Made by a program: the position numbers and the translations under genes
Notes under the pieces: model-generated
Databases searched by the model: none
Told to the model about the DNA's origin: nothing
Seen by the model: only the letters and a program-made list of their open reading frames with translations
Assembly: GCF_000026545.1 (NCBI RefSeq)
Contig: NC_011601.1
Length of the DNA stretch: 64,000 nucleotides
Origin: Escherichia coli O127:H6 str. E2348/69
GTDB taxonomy: Bacteria > Pseudomonadota > Gammaproteobacteria > Enterobacterales > Enterobacteriaceae
Reading direction: 5' to 3' (one strand)
Shown: positions 36,226 through 62,436 of the stretch, piece after piece
Position numbering within the stretch: the first letter of the stretch is position 1
Layout of the letters: each line of letters opens with the position of its first letter

Positions 36226-36247
36226 ATAAATATCCTCCGGCATAGCC

Positions 36248-37797
36248 CTGTCTCTTATACACAAATCCCCACCCGGGGATTTGTGATGTCTGTCAGTCTG
36301 CTTTAGGGGGACTCTTTCCATCCGGTAGTTTCCTTCCTCCCCGGCAGCGATTTTTTGAACTTTTTCCTCACCTGTTGATCTTCTCTTATATTTCATTTTC
36401 TTCGGGTCTGTTATGGTACTTTCTGATTGTTATTCATGGGCTAACGAGCAGTTTGGACATGCCCGTCTCGGTGATCCGCGTCGTACACGACGCCTTGTGT
36501 CACTGGCCTCTTCTCTCGCTCAGCATGCAGGTCTTTCTATTGTGAAATCATCCCAGTCCACTGCTCAGGTTGAAGGTGCGTACCGCCTGATACGTAACCC
36601 GTCTGTGTCCCCGCAAGCCATTGCCGAAGCCGGATTTACCGCCACTGTAAGGGCATGTGAGGCTCATCCGCTGCTCCTCGCGCTGGAAGACACCACCACC
36701 ATTAACTTCAGTCACAGTACGGCATCTGATGACCTGGGGAATACCACCACTAACCCGAAGACGCGCGGGCTGCTGGCTCACTCTGTCCTGATGTACGCCC
36801 CCGACAGCGCCCTGCCAGTCGGTCTTATCGAACAGCAGCGCTGGAGTCGTGCCACGGACACCTACGGTGTTAAGCACCAGCGAAAAGAACGTCCCTATGA
36901 AGAAAAAGAAAGTTACCGCTGGCAGCAGGCTTCGGAGCGCATGGCCGAACGGCTGGGGGAGATACAGAAACGGGTAATCACTGTCTGTGACCGGGAAGCG
37001 GATATCTGGCATTACCTGCATTATAAAGTCAGCCACGGGCAGCGCTTCGTGGTGCGTGCAGCACAGAATCGCCGGCTGGAAGAAGCACCCGGCAAGCTCT
37101 TCGAACTGCCGGAAGTCCTGGCAACCGCGGGAAGCCACACGCTGAATGTGATGCAAAAAGGCGGGCGGGCAGCCCGCCAGGCCCGGATGTTCATCAGTTA
37201 CAGCGAAGTCAGCATAAAAAATCCCGACAACAGCGGCCAGGCGCTCCCGCTCACGTATGTCTGTTGCCGGGAGCAGGCAGAGGACGGCGCCTGCTGGCAT
37301 CTGCTGACGTCAGAAAAAGTGGCGAGTGCCGCCGATGCGCGACGTATCGTCAGCCATTACGAGCGACGCTGGCTGATAGAGGAATACCACAAGGCGTGGA
37401 AAAGTGGTGGTACATGTGTGGAATCGCTGCGAATGCAGACCCGGGATAACCTCGAGCGCATGGTGGTTATCAAGGCGTTTATCGCGGTGCGGGTGCTGGG
37501 CCTGCGGCAGGGCGGTATCAGTGAAGAAACACAAAATGACAGCTGTGAGAAAATACTGACGCCGACAGAGTGGAAACTGCTGTGGGTTAAGCTGGAAGGA
37601 AAACCGCTTCCGTCACAGATGCCGACACTGAAATGGGCCTGTCTGAAACTGGCGAAACTGGGGCGATGGCATGACAGCAAACGCACCGGTCGCCCCGGTT
37701 GGGTAGTCATGTGGGATGGCTGGTTCAGACTTCAGGATATGGTTGAGGGTTACCTGGTGATGAAGTCTCTTGATCAGGAGATCTGATCAAGAGACAG
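36248..37797 (+). mobile_element. IS4-family, IS50(Tn5)-like insertion sequence, copy 1 (1550 bp)
   Basis: Termini CTGTCTCTTATACACAAATCC and, on the other end, CTGTCTCTTGATCAGATCT (IS50 outside/inside-end-like); flanked by the 10-bp direct repeat CGGCATAGCC; internal 457-aa transposase. Confidence 0.85.
36413..37786 (+). CDS. IS50-like DDE transposase (457 aa)
   Basis: Clear homology to Tn5 Tnp (..GDPRRT.RLV....EGAYRFIRNP.., ..YERRWLIEEYHKAWKSG.., ..RLGGFxDSKRTG-like C-terminus) but not identical to Tn5. Confidence 0.85.
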   Translation: MVLSDCYSWANEQFGHARLGDPRRTRRLVSLASSLAQHAGLSIVKSSQSTAQVEGAYRLIRNPSVSPQAIAEAGFTATVRACEAHPLLLALEDTTTINFSHSTASDDLGNTTTNPKTRGLLAHSVLMYAPDSALPVGLIEQQRWSRATDTYGVKHQRKERPYEEKESYRWQQASERMAERLGEIQKRVITVCDREADIWHYLHYKVSHGQRFVVRAAQNRRLEEAPGKLFELPEVLATAGSHTLNVMQKGGRAARQARMFISYSEVSIKNPDNSGQALPLTYVCCREQAEDGACWHLLTSEKVASAADARRIVSHYERRWLIEEYHKAWKSGGTCVESLRMQTRDNLERMVVIKAFIAVRVLGLRQGGISEETQNDSCEKILTPTEWKLLWVKLEGKPLPSQMPTLKWACLKLAKLGRWHDSKRTGRPGWVVMWDGWFRLQDMVEGYLVMKSLDQEI

Positions 37798-37815
37798 CGG
37801 CATAGCCGGAGGTTT

Positions 37816-38496
37816 TTCAAATGCGCCTATAAGGCTCTCTTACCAGCCGCGCCCTAACAGGCGCACACGATCTGACATTTGCATCCAACTTCGTTACTTA
37901 CGGCCCGTAAACGGGCTGCCCGGATAGGGAATCGATAACTGCTCTCCCATTTTATCCTCTTCAAGCTGGTGCTTTATGTAATCCTGTATCTTCGCCGTGT
38001 TCTTACCCACCGTATCGACGTAATACCCTCTGCACCAGAACTCCCTGTTCCTGTACTTGAATTTCAAATCACCAAACTGCTCGTAAAGCATCAGACTGCT
38101 TTTCCCTTTCAGATATCCCATAAAGCCGGATACGCTCATTTTGGGCGGGATCTCCACAAGCATATGGATATGATCTGCACAGCATTCAGCTTCCAGAATC
38201 CGTACACTTTTCCACTCACACAGCTTTCTCAAAATACAGCCTATTGCTCTACGCTTCTCTCTGTAGAACACCTGTCTTCGGTATTTTGGCGCAAATACTA
38301 TGTGATATTTACAGTTCCATCGGGTGTGCGCTAAGCTCTTTTCGTTCCCCATTGGGACCCCCTTTTGATTTCTTGTTTGACACTTGCAGTTGCCAGACCG
38401 CAAGGTGTTTTAACAAATCAAAAGGGGTTTTAATAACTGGCTCAAAGCTGAAAGCTTTCCGGAACCCCCAGCCTAGCTGGGGGTTTTCTGTGCACA
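37816..38496 (-). mobile_element. IS200-like element (IS200/IS605 family); boundaries approximate
   Basis: Contains the IS200-type tnpA gene plus a terminal hairpin cccccagcctagctggggg (38466..38484); about 680 bp. Confidence 0.6.
37894..38403 (-). CDS. tnpA: IS200-family HUH (Y1) transposase TnpA
   Basis: 169-aa protein with the HuH motif (ADHIHMLVEIPPKMSVS) and the catalytic Tyr region (RGYYVDTVGKN) typical of IS200 TnpA. Confidence 0.85.
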   Translation of the reverse strand: MRSGNCKCQTRNQKGVPMGNEKSLAHTRWNCKYHIVFAPKYRRQVFYREKRRAIGCILRKLCEWKSVRILEAECCADHIHMLVEIPPKMSVSGFMGYLKGKSSLMLYEQFGDLKFKYRNREFWCRGYYVDTVGKNTAKIQDYIKHQLEEDKMGEQLSIPYPGSPFTGRK

Positions 38497-47774: not shown

Positions 47775-48272
47775 TCAAGTGTTTTGTAGAAATTGTTGCC
47801 ACAAGGTCTGCAATGCATACGCAGTAGCCTGACGACGCACCGCATCACGGTCACCGCTGAAGCATTCCCGGCGGGTAATACCTTCGCCGCGGGCGGTGGC
47901 AAAAGCAAACCAGACGGTGCCGACAGGCTTCTCTTCACTGCCGCCATCCGGCCCGGCGATACCACTAATAGACACGGCATAATCAGCACGAGCCGCTTTC
48001 AGTGCGCCTATCGCCATTTCCACCACGACAGGCTCGCTCACCGCGCCATGCTGCGCCAGCGTCTCTTCGCGTACACCGATCATTTGCGCTTTCGCTTCGT
48101 TACTGTAGGTGACAAATCCGCGTTCAAACCAGGCGGAGCTACCGGCAATATCGGTAATCACTTTCGCTACCCAACCGCCGGTACAAGACTCAGCAGTTGT
48201 TACGGTTGCGCCACGGACTTTCAGCGCCTGCCCAACCTGTTCGCTTAACTGCATCAGTTCACTGTCAGTCAT
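47775..48272 (-). CDS. pncC: NMN amidohydrolase PncC (CinA-like; YgaD)
   Basis: Start MTDSELMQLSEQVGQALK..; matches recalled PncC. Confidence 0.92.
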   Translation of the reverse strand: MTDSELMQLSEQVGQALKVRGATVTTAESCTGGWVAKVITDIAGSSAWFERGFVTYSNEAKAQMIGVREETLAQHGAVSEPVVVEMAIGALKAARADYAVSISGIAGPDGGSEEKPVGTVWFAFATARGEGITRRECFSGDRDAVRRQATAYALQTLWQQFLQNT

Positions 48273-48416
48273 CACAACCTCTGTCAGTCATAAATTTATG
48301 CCGGACAAGATAGCACTTTCGTCAGGAAGATGGTGTTGGCGTTGCAATTTTACGAGGAGGATTCAGAAAAAAGCTGATTAGCCAGAGGGAAGCTCACGCC
48401 CCCCTCTGGCAAATAG

Positions 48417-49502
48417 TTACTGCACGCGCGCCAGCGCCACGGCTTGTCCTAACTGCCAGACCGCCATTGCGTAATGGGTGCTGTGGTTATAACGGGTAAT
48501 GGTGTAGAAGTTCGGCAGACCGTACCAGTACTGGTAACCGGTACCGACATCCAGACGCAGCAGGCTGGCTTGTTGATGGTTGCCCAGCGGCTGCTGTGGC
48601 GTTAAACCTGCCGCGGCAAGCTGCGAAATGCTGTACCTGGTTTTGAAGCCATTTGGCAAGCCTGGCGCCTGACCGTTTGCCATTACCGCGACCTGATCGC
48701 CTTTCACCCAGCCGTGCGCTTTGAAATAATTCGCCACGCTACCGATCGCATCAACCGGATCCCACAGGTTGATATGCCCGTCGCCGCTGAAATCTACCGC
48801 ATATTGTTTGTAAGACGACGGCATAAACTGTCCGTAGCCCATCGCCCCGGCAAAGGAACCTTTCAGATTGAGCGGATCGTCCTGCTCGTCGCGCGCCATC
48901 AGCAGGAAGGTTTCCAGCTCGCCAGAAAAATACTCCGCGCGGCGTGGGTAGTTAAATGACAGCGTTGCCAGCGCATCGAGGATGCGAGTTTTCCCCATCA
49001 CGCGCCCCCAGCGGGTTTCAACGCCGATAATCCCGACGATAATTTCCGGCGGTACACCATACACCTGCCACGCGCGATTCAACGCATCTTCATACTGATT
49101 CCAGAAAACCACACCGTTCTGCACGTTGTCCGGCGTAATAAATTTTTTGCGATAACGCAGCCATGCGCCGTTCGGACCTGATGGCGGTTTCACCGATGTG
49201 GTTGGTGCCTGGTTATCCATCAGCCGCAGTACCGAATCCAGACGTTTCGCCTGGGAGAGAATTTCCTGCAACTGCTGACGATCGAAACCGTGTTTGTTCA
49301 CCATTTTGTCGATGAACTGCTGGGCATTCGGGTTATTGGCGAAGTCACCGCCCATCTGCATCACATTGTGCTGCGGCTCAAGCAGGAAGCCGCCAGACGG
49401 CGTTCCGGTGGTCGTTTCAGTCTCAGTAGGTTTTGGCTTGCTGCTACAGGCGGCAAGCAACACAAAAAGGGGAAGCAATGTTACATAACGACGCTTGAAC
49501 AT
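48417..49502 (-). CDS. mltB: Membrane-bound lytic murein transglycosylase B
   Basis: Start MFKRRYVTLLPLFVLLAACSS (lipoprotein signal); the ORF-track start at 49562 is an upstream extension. Confidence 0.95.
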   Translation of the reverse strand: MFKRRYVTLLPLFVLLAACSSKPKPTETETTTGTPSGGFLLEPQHNVMQMGGDFANNPNAQQFIDKMVNKHGFDRQQLQEILSQAKRLDSVLRLMDNQAPTTSVKPPSGPNGAWLRYRKKFITPDNVQNGVVFWNQYEDALNRAWQVYGVPPEIIVGIIGVETRWGRVMGKTRILDALATLSFNYPRRAEYFSGELETFLLMARDEQDDPLNLKGSFAGAMGYGQFMPSSYKQYAVDFSGDGHINLWDPVDAIGSVANYFKAHGWVKGDQVAVMANGQAPGLPNGFKTRYSISQLAAAGLTPQQPLGNHQQASLLRLDVGTGYQYWYGLPNFYTITRYNHSTHYAMAVWQLGQAVALARVQ

Positions 49503-54994: not shown

Positions 54995-55121
<127 letters not shown>

Positions 55122-55163
55122 TGAACTGCACCCCAAATGTTGGACATAATCTGACATCTGAAG

Positions 55164-55694
55164 GTGCAGTTTATGAAACATTCATTTGAAGTAAAACTTG
55201 CCGCTGTAAATCATTACCTGGCTGGTCATGCAGGCATCATTTCTACGGCAAAACTCTTTCAACTTTCTCACACCAGCCTCTCACACTGGATTAATCTTTT
55301 TCTTCTTCACGGTCCTCGGGCACTGGATTGCAGACACAAGCGTAGCTATTCTCCTGAAGATAAACTTTGCGTGGTTCTTTATGCTCTCGGACATTCTGAG
55401 TCTCTACCCCGGGTAGCTGCCCGGTTTAACATTCCCAGCCACAACACGGTTAAAAACTGGATAAAAGGCTACCGCAAATCTGGTAATGAGGCCTTTATCA
55501 GGCGCAGGAAGGAGAAAAGCATGACCCGTTCTGATGATACCCATGAAAACGAGGCAAACATGACGCCGGAAGAGATGAAGAATGAGCTGCGTTATCTTCG
55601 CGCAGAAAATGCATATCTGAAAGCCATGCAGGAGCATCTTCTGGAAAAAAAGCGCCAGGAGCTGGAGAAAAAACGAAAGTCATCCGGAGCCTGA
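55164..55694 (+). CDS. IS3-family (IS150-like) OrfA
   Basis: 176-aa HTH/leucine-zipper protein; ends at an A_AAA_AAG slippery motif (55651..55659). Confidence 0.8.
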   Translation: MQFMKHSFEVKLAAVNHYLAGHAGIISTAKLFQLSHTSLSHWINLFLLHGPRALDCRHKRSYSPEDKLCVVLYALGHSESLPRVAARFNIPSHNTVKNWIKGYRKSGNEAFIRRRKEKSMTRSDDTHENEANMTPEEMKNELRYLRAENAYLKAMQEHLLEKKRQELEKKRKSSGA

Positions 55695-56126
55695 GGTACG
55701 GACACTGCCAGTCTGACCTGTTAAAGGCCGCAGGGCTGGCCAGAAGCACGCTGTACTACCAGCTGTCACTGCAGAAGGCTAAGGACAAGTATGCTGATGT
55801 GAAACAGCTCATAGCCTCCATCTTCCATGAACACCGGGGATGTTATGGGTACCGGCGGATCCATTGTGAGCTTCAGAAAAGAGGTCTTAAGTTCAGTGGC
55901 AAAACGGTGCGAAAACTGATGCAACAGCTCGGCCTGAAGTCTCCTGTGCGCCTGAAGAAATACCGGTCTTACCGGGGAAATATGGGACTCGCTGCAGAAA
56001 ATATCCTTCAGCGGCAGTTCAAAGCGGAAGCTCCCTGTGAGAAATGGGTGACAGATATCACCGAATTCAGGGCTGGCGGACAAAAACTGTACCTGTCCCC
56101 GATACTTGATTTGTTTAACGGGGAAA
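55650..56126 (+). pseudogene. Element A orfB, N-terminal fragment (through ..WVTDITEF..LYLSPILDLFNGE)
   Basis: IS3 DDE transposase N-terminal region truncated at the insertion of element B. Confidence 0.65.
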
Positions 56127-59096
<2,970 letters not shown>

Positions 59097-59135: not shown

Positions 59136-61388
59136 TTATCCGTTCTGGACTTCCCCTGCCAACCAACGCGCCGCAACAATAACCCCCTGCCCCAGAGACA
59201 ACCCGCCGTCACCCGCCGGTAAACTCTGTGGAAAGAGCAATGTGAAATCAGCGAGATAATGCGCCAGACGTGCACGCAGCAAACGGTTATGAATAACCCC
59301 GCCGCTAAATACCAGCGTAGTGATACCACGCATCGTGGCCTGCTCACGCATCAACGCAGCAAAACCCTGCGCCAGCGCATCATGAAACGCCCACGCGCGT
59401 TGATTAACCGGAGCCTGCCAGTTCAGCCACTGCTGCCAGAAAGTGGCGAGATCCAGTTGATTATCCACCAGCGGCATCGTCACCGGATGCGTCACTCCCT
59501 GGCTCGAAGCCGCCAGCGCCTCGAGAGCACAAGCCGCTTCACCTTCATAACTTAACGTGGCTGGCGCACAGCCCAGCGCCGCCGCTACGGCATCGAACAA
59601 ACGTCCACACGATGATGCCATCGGCGCGTTAATTCCACGCTCAATAGCCCGCGCCAGCACGCTCCAGTTTTGCTGTTGCACTCTTGCCGTTTCAGAGTAA
59701 TTCTGCCACTCCGGCACAAAGCGCAGGCACTGCGCCAGCAGGTTTCGCCACGGCTGCTTCGCAGCCAAATCGCCCCCCGGAAGCGCCACCGCAGGCAAGC
59801 CGCCCAGGTGCTGGCATTCACGATAGTTCACCCGCAAGCACTCGCCGCCCCACAAAGCGCCGTTCTCCCCCATACCAATACCGTCGAGCGTCAACGCAAT
59901 GACATCTCCGCCATCCAGAGGCCAGAGGTGTTCTGCCAGACACGCCGCTGCGTGGGCATGATGATGCAGTACCGTTTGCGTCGGCAGATTCATTTCGCGC
60001 GCCCACTGGCTGGAGACATAGCCCGGATGCGCGTCATGCACAACGTATTGCGGAGTGAAATCGTAGATGTTTTGCATCAGGCGTAACGCTTCGCGCCACT
60101 GCATCTGGATGCCATCGTCACTTAAATCGCCCAGATGCTGACTCAACACCGCTTGTTCGCCGCGCACCAGGCAGAAGGTATTTTTCAGATCCGCGCCGAG
60201 ACACAGCACAGGCGGAACATTTTTAAAGCCCGGAGGCAAAGCCAGCGCATCCGGCACATACCCCCGCGAACGGCGCAGCATTTCGCCGCTTTCGCGCACC
60301 ACCGAATCATCCATCCGCTGCACGATGTCGCGGTTATGTATCAAGAATCCGTCGGCAATGCCCTGCAAATCCGCCAGCGCCTGTTCGTTGCTGATAGCCG
60401 GTGGTTTACCGCTCAGGTTGCCGGAGGTCATCACCAGCGGGCATTGCAGTTCCTGTAACAGCAAATGCTGGAGCGGGTTCGCAGGCAACATTACCCCGAC
60501 TTCGTTAAGGCCAGGGGCGATATCATCACAAAGCTCAGGAACGTATTTTTTATCCACCAGCACAATCGGCGCGGCGGGCGTGGTAAGCAACTGACGGGCA
60601 GCGTCTGGTAAACCTTCTGCCGTTGGCAACATGACCGCCAGCGGTTTCGCCGGGCGATGTTTGCGCGCCCGAAGTGTCGCCACCGCGTTACTGTTACGTG
60701 CATCGCAGGCAAGATGAAATCCGCCAATCCCTTTGATGGCGACAATGTTGCCCATTTTTAACTGTGCGATAGCTGCCTGTAATGCCGCCTCTTGTTCTGC
60801 ATGTTCACCATGACTTACCCATTCAAGATGGGGGCCACACTCCGGGCAGGCCACCGGCTGGGCGTGGAAGCGACGATCGAGCGGGTCACAGTACTCTTTG
60901 TCACAAGCCGGACACAGCGGAAACGCCGCCATCACGGTAAACGGGCGGTCGTAAGGCATGGCGCGAATAATGGTGAAACGCGGGCCACAGTGGGTACAGT
61001 TGATAAACGGATAACGCCAGCGTCGTTCGCCTGGGGTATTCATTTCGGCAAGGCAAGCAGGGCAAGTCGCGGCATCGGGAACAATTTGCGTATTCATGAC
61101 GCCACCCGCGCTCTGGCGGATGGTGAACTCAGTGGGCAGTTGTGACCAGATAAACGGCTCACGCTCGACGCTATCAATACGCGCCAGTGGCGGGCAGTGC
61201 TGATGCAATTGAACAAGAAACGTTTCCGGATCTTCCAGCAGCCGGACTTCTACGCCATCGCCGTCATTACAGACATCGCCGTGAAGATTTAATTACTGTG
61301 CCAGTTGCCAGACAAACGGACGAAAACCGACGCCCTGCACTTTGCCACGAATACGCAGTTGGACACCGCAAGATGTGTTTTTTGCCAT
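59136..61388 (-). pseudogene. hypF: Carbamoyltransferase HypF with premature stop at codon 32 (CAA to TAA)
   Basis: Minus strand reads [35 protein letters not shown](61293..61295)[16 protein letters not shown].. then continues in frame as full-length HypF; the ORF-track 690-aa ORF starts at an internal Met. Confidence 0.85.
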
Positions 61389-61540: not shown

Positions 61541-62068
61541 TTAGAACATCAGCGCCGTGCGGCGGCGTTTTTCTGCGCTCAGTTGTTCAAGTTTATTACG
61601 ATCGACACAAATCAGCGCATGGGTCGGGCAAGCCGCCATACACGCCGGGCCGTCTTCACGATGGTTGCACAGGTCGCATTTATTGGCTTCGGCTTTGTCA
61701 GCCCGTACATTCAGTCCTGCGCCGCTGTTGCGAATCACCGGACGCACCACCACTTCCATCGCACCATACGGGCAAGCCACAACGCAGGTTTTGCAACCAA
61801 TACAACGTTCCTGCATGACATGAACAAACCCTTTATCACGGCTGATAGCACCATTCGGGCAGACGTTAGCGCACGGTGCATCTTCACACTGACGGCAAAC
61901 TGTCGCCGTGGAAATGTTCACACCTTTAATGACATGGATACGCGGTAAAAATGTTTCCGGGGTCAGCGATGCACAGTCCTGATTTTCCTGATGAGAAACC
62001 ACGCACGCCACTTCACAGGTACGGCAACCAATACATTTACTCGCGTCAGCAATGATGAAACGGTTCAT
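61541..62068 (-). CDS. hydN: Electron-transport ferredoxin-like protein HydN (4x[4Fe-4S])
   Basis: Start [22 protein letters not shown]; multiple CxxCxxCxxxCP motifs. Confidence 0.93.
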
Positions 62069-62410: not shown

Positions 62411-62436
62411 GTGCACAGAAAACCCCCAGCTAGGCT
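62411..62436. mobile_element. IS200-like terminal hairpin fragment (left half), split by IS50-like copy 2; other half at 63987..64000
   Basis: gtgcacagaaaacccccagctaggct + [IS] + agctaggctggggg reconstitutes the same hairpin seen in the IS200-like element at 38466..38496 (reverse complement). Confidence 0.55.

Follow-up and report, generated by a model that had tools for sequence, protein, structure and literature searches.

A premature stop codon in hypF that is private to one assembly of Escherichia coli E2348/69

HypF is indispensable for synthesis of the CN ligands of the [NiFe] hydrogenases: without it no active enzyme is formed in vitro, and the HypF-less scaffold complex lacks the Fe(CN)2CO group (PMC9418501). 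In E. coli MC4100 delta-hypF (strain DHP-F2), hydrogenases 1, 2 and 3 are all inactive (PMC9418501). The consequence predicted for the allele described here is the same, with the difference that MC4100 delta-hypF / DHP-F2 are engineered deletions with a measured phenotype, whereas the present allele is a point nonsense mutation and a predicted null. Structures of the E. coli protein cover residues 1-91 (1GXT/1GXU) and residues 92-750 (3TSP, 3TSQ and related entries).

We examined hypF in a 64,000-nucleotide stretch of the chromosome of E. coli O127:H6 str. E2348/69 (NC_011601.1), referred to below as the window. As in K-12 (b2712), the gene comprises 750 codons, belongs to a hydN-hypF operon next to norW and encodes the same order of domains; the two versions differ by 82 nucleotides and 20 amino acids, the stop included. 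Whereas codon 32 of K-12 MG1655 hypF is CAA (Gln32), that of the window is TAA, and a full protein is impossible from the sequence as written. Translation of the minus strand shows that the frame opens with an ATG at 61388, closes with the terminal stop at 59136 and contains a single internal stop. The features of the locus are as follows.

59136..61388, minus strand: hypF reading frame, 750 codons plus terminal stop, with one interruption at codon 32
61293..61295, minus strand: premature ochre TAA at codon 32; CAA (Gln) in all compared sequences but one
61295: variant base, T on the coding strand and A on the plus strand; C in the intact hypF allele
61296..61388, minus strand: 31-codon N-terminal stub, holding the start of the acylphosphatase domain and the GxVQGVGFR motif with Arg23, and ending before Asn41
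61206..61208, minus strand: TTG that opens a mechanical 690-amino acid open reading frame (59136..61208); Leu61 in the native frame
61095..61097, minus strand: codon 98, the first ATG in frame downstream of the stop; GGTGG lies 4 nt before it
61541..62068, minus strand: hydN, upstream gene of the hydN-hypF operon, intact; WP_001078777.1 in three E2348/69-derived records

The change is a C-to-T transition that converts Gln32 (CAA) to an ochre codon; the base that follows is T (stop context TAAT), and the site is neither a homopolymer nor a repeat. The preliminary description had reported this in-frame TAA in an otherwise open frame, had given CAA (Gln32) as the K-12 codon and had taken the downstream sequence to encode full-length HypF. 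All three points hold: the stop is evident on translation, MG1655 has CAA, and no other stop interrupts the 750 codons. When Gln32 is restored, the protein scores 1051.7 bits against TIGR00143, the curated HypF model (NCBIfam equivalog; cut-off 466.1 bits), and aligns with profile positions 1-740 of 741. Pfam places an acylphosphatase domain at residues 10-77 (PF00708), the two zf-HYPF fingers at 108-141 and 158-190 (PF07503), a YrdC-like domain at 209-373 (PF01300) and a Kae1-like region at 390-734 (PF17788 and PF22521), so the restored protein has the complete four-part HypF architecture. The stop falls within the first of these domains. We take GxVQGVGFR to be its phosphate-binding motif, and presume that Arg23 and Asn41 have the roles that they have in acylphosphatases generally.

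The longest ATG-initiated product that the window hypF can encode is residues 98-750, which include the Zn fingers and the YrdC-like and Kae1-like domains and lack the acylphosphatase domain; this fragment scores 922.3 bits against TIGR00143, over profile positions 90-740. ATG98 is the only plausible internal start, and gene callers begin comparable broken hypF alleles at Met98, giving 653-amino acid products (contigs L007 and L031-L034). The 690-amino acid open reading frame had been thought to start at an internal Met. Its first codon is instead the TTG at Leu61, and no Shine-Dalgarno-like sequence precedes it (upstream sequence cggaaacgtttcttgttcaaTTG).

A megablast search of 5,426 complete E. 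coli genomes, NC_011601 / FM180568 not among them, with the hypF region returned only three records of at least 99% identity: CP059840.2, LT827011.1 ('variety 2') and LT903847.1 (EPEC1, which was built from variety 2). All three are EPEC O127:H6 E2348/69 or a derivative, together they represent two independent resequencings, and the hypF annotation in each is that of an intact CDS (WP_001107656.1) and not of a pseudogene. Over the 2,365 bases of the hypF region each of these near-perfect matches has one mismatch with the window, at 61295, where they have C and the window has T. The WP_001107656.1 allele, found in the E2348/69 and EPEC1 clade, is thus the same as the window hypF at 2,252 of 2,253 bases, and its flanks are also those of the window, with ISEc13 / IS200C upstream of hydN and IS debris downstream of hypF. 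When the comparison is extended to all 64,000 bases, CP059840.2 has one mismatch and no gaps, and LT827011.1 one substitution and no gaps; in both cases the difference is again base 61295. The key point is not the chance occurrence of a nonsense codon; it is that this base is the sole difference in 64,000 between the window and two assemblies of the same strain.

The quality and origin of these assemblies bear on how the difference is read. CP059840.2 (4,944,462 bp) matches in length a Unicycler hybrid assembly that is the consensus of three hybrid assemblies, each made with 100x Illumina data and Pilon polishing (PMC8495745). LT827011.1 derives from Illumina MiSeq data, at 210x for the wild type, assembled de novo and guided by NC_011601 (PMC5685641), and its record names 'Sanger Centre via Imperial College' as the source, a provenance that it shares with the 2009 reference. 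The authors call the wild type a 'perfect match' to NC_011601 except for four gaps (PMC5685641, S1 Text). Despite this wording, the deposited LT827011.1 still differs from the window at hypF codon 32. Either the phrase ignores single-base differences, or NC_011601 has C. The four gap lengths sum exactly to the 116,932-bp size difference when the reference chromosome is assigned a length of 4,965,553 bp, which we take to be correct.

Of the same 5,426 complete E. coli genomes, 5,298 gave a hit to a 61-base probe centred on the T, none of them exact and each at least one mismatch away; the 128 genomes with no hit at all are a small caveat. At least eight further related assemblies that were fetched (from DEC-collection and NCTC strains) share the ISEc13-hydN-hypF-IS-remnant context, lack the T and encode an identical, intact 750-amino acid HypF. 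In the index of a public assembly collection, 96 blocks contain this exact intact protein, and neither of the window's remnants, the 653-amino acid product from Met98 or the 690-amino acid product from TTG61, occurs in a collection of 15 billion proteins. A full-text literature search returned nothing on E2348 together with hypF, and nothing relevant, by titles and abstracts, on E2348 together with hydrogenase. Comparison with the closest relatives, proposed earlier as a check on the stop, thus gave C in three E2348/69-derived records and eight clade relatives, and the lesion is shared by none of these or of the 5,298 genomes with a hit. The hypF stop is private to one E2348/69 assembly, almost certainly the 2009 reference FM180568/NC_011601, and is not a trait of the strain or of its clade.

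The one other compared sequence with the same CAA-to-TAA change at codon 32 comes from an ST73 / CFT073-like strain (Logan assembly of run ERR12735642; contig L007, 5001-7253). Its 3.9-kb hydN-hypF region is one base from CFT073, ATCC 25922 and relatives (B2). It therefore resembles the window both in the change itself and in standing one base from the nearest complete genomes; unlike the window, it has 36 other hypF differences and no IS elements beside hydN. This TAA is an independent, equally private event in a different B2 background.

Several further candidates for a shared lesion were rejected. The 31-residue stub does occur as an exact product, but in nine of the ten contigs shown the sequence simply runs out at hypF nt 93-95, and the true stop is present in one, the ERR12735642 contig from a different strain. 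The other three contigs that encode the 653-amino acid remnant of ERR12735642 have different 5' lesions and no TAA. A Shigella sonnei protein of 32 amino acids, named 'acylphosphatase, partial', precedes a scaffold N-gap after nt 96 and reflects an assembly break, not a shared lesion. The other contigs with a 32-amino acid product end at hypF nt 97-104, and one of these ends (L036) resembles an Illumina adapter. Altogether, dozens of contigs from unrelated samples end near hypF codon 32 (L008-L016 and L035-L040, nt 93-104), truncated products of 31 and 32 amino acids being found in 30-40 contigs each and those of 27, 30 and 34 amino acids in 2-6. The stretch hypF nt 93-104 is a spot where assemblies break, and the contigs have no stop codon in common there.

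The private T has one of two origins, a very recent mutation in the subculture that was sequenced or an error of base calling or cloning. The choice is nearly even, and we lean slightly to a real, clone-private mutation. Our preferred reading, to which we assign a probability of about 0.5, is that a real and extremely recent mutation arose in the subculture or colony whose DNA was sequenced; the T would then have been present in the DNA itself and not merely in the base calls. C-to-T is the commonest spontaneous change. The window hypF has no other difference from the intact allele, and a gene that has acquired no further change after a nonsense mutation points to an extremely recent event. 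The identical change in the raw-read assembly of another strain shows that the mutation is biologically attainable.

A base-call, cloning or finishing error in the one assembly, from an organism that has CAA and makes a normal HypF, is a serious competitor, which we would place somewhat short of even odds; the preliminary description had already offered a sequencing error as its alternative. All other E2348/69 assemblies (CP059840.2, LT827011.1 and LT903847.1) have C, as does every related assembly that was fetched, and the stock behind LT827011.1 comes from the sequencing centre of the reference itself, with the reported match to NC_011601 in all but the four gaps (PMC5685641). One discrepancy per 64 kb is a frequency that residual error in a finished capillary assembly could account for, and such an error in a capillary assembly of 5 Mb is a commoner event than a mutation limited to a single picked colony. 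The intact state of hycA-I, hypA-E and fhlA also favours an error. Against it, a site that is neither homopolymer nor repeat is an atypical context for a miscall, the same mutation is found in ERR12735642, and the original record apparently contains no HypF protein, which suggests that its annotators accepted a pseudogene.

This last point can be followed through protein accessions. Products of FM180568 appear in the index with CAS accessions, and each accession list is in alphabetical order; for EspG2 of the window, CAS10464.1 stands second. The list for intact HypF contains CAM, EFA, EFR and EHU accessions and no CAS entry. Since both remnants are missing as well, the original record would have no HypF protein at all. 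FM180568 thus seems to lack one, which fits a /pseudo annotation due to the stop, and we infer that the 2009 reference (FM180568/NC_011601) already records hypF as a pseudogene. This suggests that the annotators saw the stop in their data and accepted it; pseudogene calls are customarily checked against reads.

We consider it unlikely that the streptomycin-resistant E2348/69 stock behind the world reference truly carries the T. If it did, some laboratories would unknowingly be using a hydrogenase-null EPEC prototype, and what they find with it on anaerobic metabolism, acid resistance and gut colonisation could be affected. A mutation that is real in one stock would be a further example of prototype strains drifting between laboratories. 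The main value of the observation is as a caution, in that a hydrogenase deficiency of E2348/69 or of its lineage could be wrongly inferred from the reference sequence when other E2348/69 assemblies encode an intact HypF. The stop is an ordinary nonsense difference of a single base, and the source record probably flags it already; it reveals no new biological feature and nothing new on HypF or hydrogenase maturation.

If real, the stop is predicted to create a null allele. Only 31 residues would be translated, and the chain would break off within the acylphosphatase domain. A TAA followed by T is an efficient terminator, and the five tRNA genes of the window, four for Arg (ACG) and one for Ser (GCT), include no suppressor; readthrough should accordingly be negligible. 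A HypF initiated at Met98 would correspond essentially to the crystallised 92-750 fragment and would lack the acylphosphatase domain, the part that frees carbamate from carbamoyl phosphate; the NiFe(CN)2CO cofactor could then not receive its CN ligands. Hydrogenases 1, 2 and 3 would stay immature, with neither H2 uptake nor formate-derived gas as the expected phenotype. The earlier proposal of a hydrogenase-deficient strain is borne out to the extent that, on the sequence as written, HypF should be lost and with it all [NiFe] hydrogenase activity. Since hypF comes last in its operon, with norW convergent to it, a polar effect is not expected.

A real stop might nevertheless leave function intact, if initiation at Met98 or readthrough supplied enough HypF for hydrogenase maturation. 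The weak Shine-Dalgarno-like GGTGG 4 nt upstream of ATG98 offers some support for this, as do the retention of every domain but the acylphosphatase in the 98-750 fragment and the fact that E. coli HypF 92-750 is a stable, crystallisable protein (3TSP/3TSQ). Naturally truncated HypF proteins also exist, such as HypF1 of C. necator (PMC9100943). That protein, however, is apparently inactive anaerobically, when the HypF of the E. coli host takes over, and it probably needs carbamoyl adenylate (PMC9100943). The domain that would be lost from the window protein is the very one that converts carbamoyl phosphate, the stop lies 66 codons upstream of ATG98 and thus too far for coupled reinitiation, and readthrough faces the strong TAAT terminator and the lack of a suppressor among the five window tRNAs. 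We therefore think it very unlikely that the allele, if real, retains function, and the preferred reading remains that of a recent mutation with a predicted null effect.

The preliminary description had further attributed the stop to ongoing reductive evolution of a Shigella-like kind, citing the IS load. Such decay of the lineage has some apparent grounds in the window, which holds two pairs of ISEc13 and IS200C, about 4 kb of IS3-family, ISEc21 and IS1397 debris adjoining hypF, and one genuine shared pseudogene, a frameshifted pdxR. However, assemblies of the same strain and the IS-flanked relatives of its clade encode an identical, intact HypF, hypF itself carries no second lesion, the neighbouring hyc, hyp and fhlA genes are intact (hycA-I, hypA-E and fhlA are so annotated in CP059840.2), and the IS insertions near hypF are intergenic. 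With a T that is private, a pathway that is intact and IS elements that are shared with hypF-positive relatives, the claim is contradicted, and we find a Shigella-like decay scarcely credible as the cause of the stop. A mutation private to the sequenced clone remains the reading that we prefer.

The IS elements of the window merit a short description of their own. Upstream of hydN, across which the window is the same as CP059840.2 and LT827011.1, IS200C and ISEc13 lie at a distance of 337 bp and are accompanied by a 6-bp target duplication. The two ISEc13 + IS200C pairs occupy window positions 36245-38478 and 62434-64000; their ISEc13 copies are in direct orientation, are approximately 99.9% identical and bracket about 24 kb, from luxS through hydN-hypF. 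One of the pairs adjoins a two-gene insert, encoding an RNA ligase and an ATP-binding protein, beside emrB. Between norW and hypF, approximately 4 kb of nested IS debris (window ~55060-59095) begins 41 bp past the hypF stop and replaces about 47 bp of intergenic region found in RM14723; it consists of IS3-family fragments, an intact ISEc21 transposase and an IS1397 remnant.

Two other loci in the window deserve mention. In CP059840.2 as in LT827011.1, the gene for the MocR-like regulator PdxR (window 18392-19725, minus strand) carries an annotated frameshift, and the window has the identical sequence at this locus. In contrast to hypF with its stop, pdxR is a true pseudogene of the strain, and it is the only non-IS pseudogene common to the window and the other E2348/69 records. 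Finally, gutQ lies about 250 bp from mltB (window ~48000-48560). We take the K-12 map to have the sorbitol operon srlAEBD-gutM-srlR between these two genes, and the operon appears to be absent from E2348/69.
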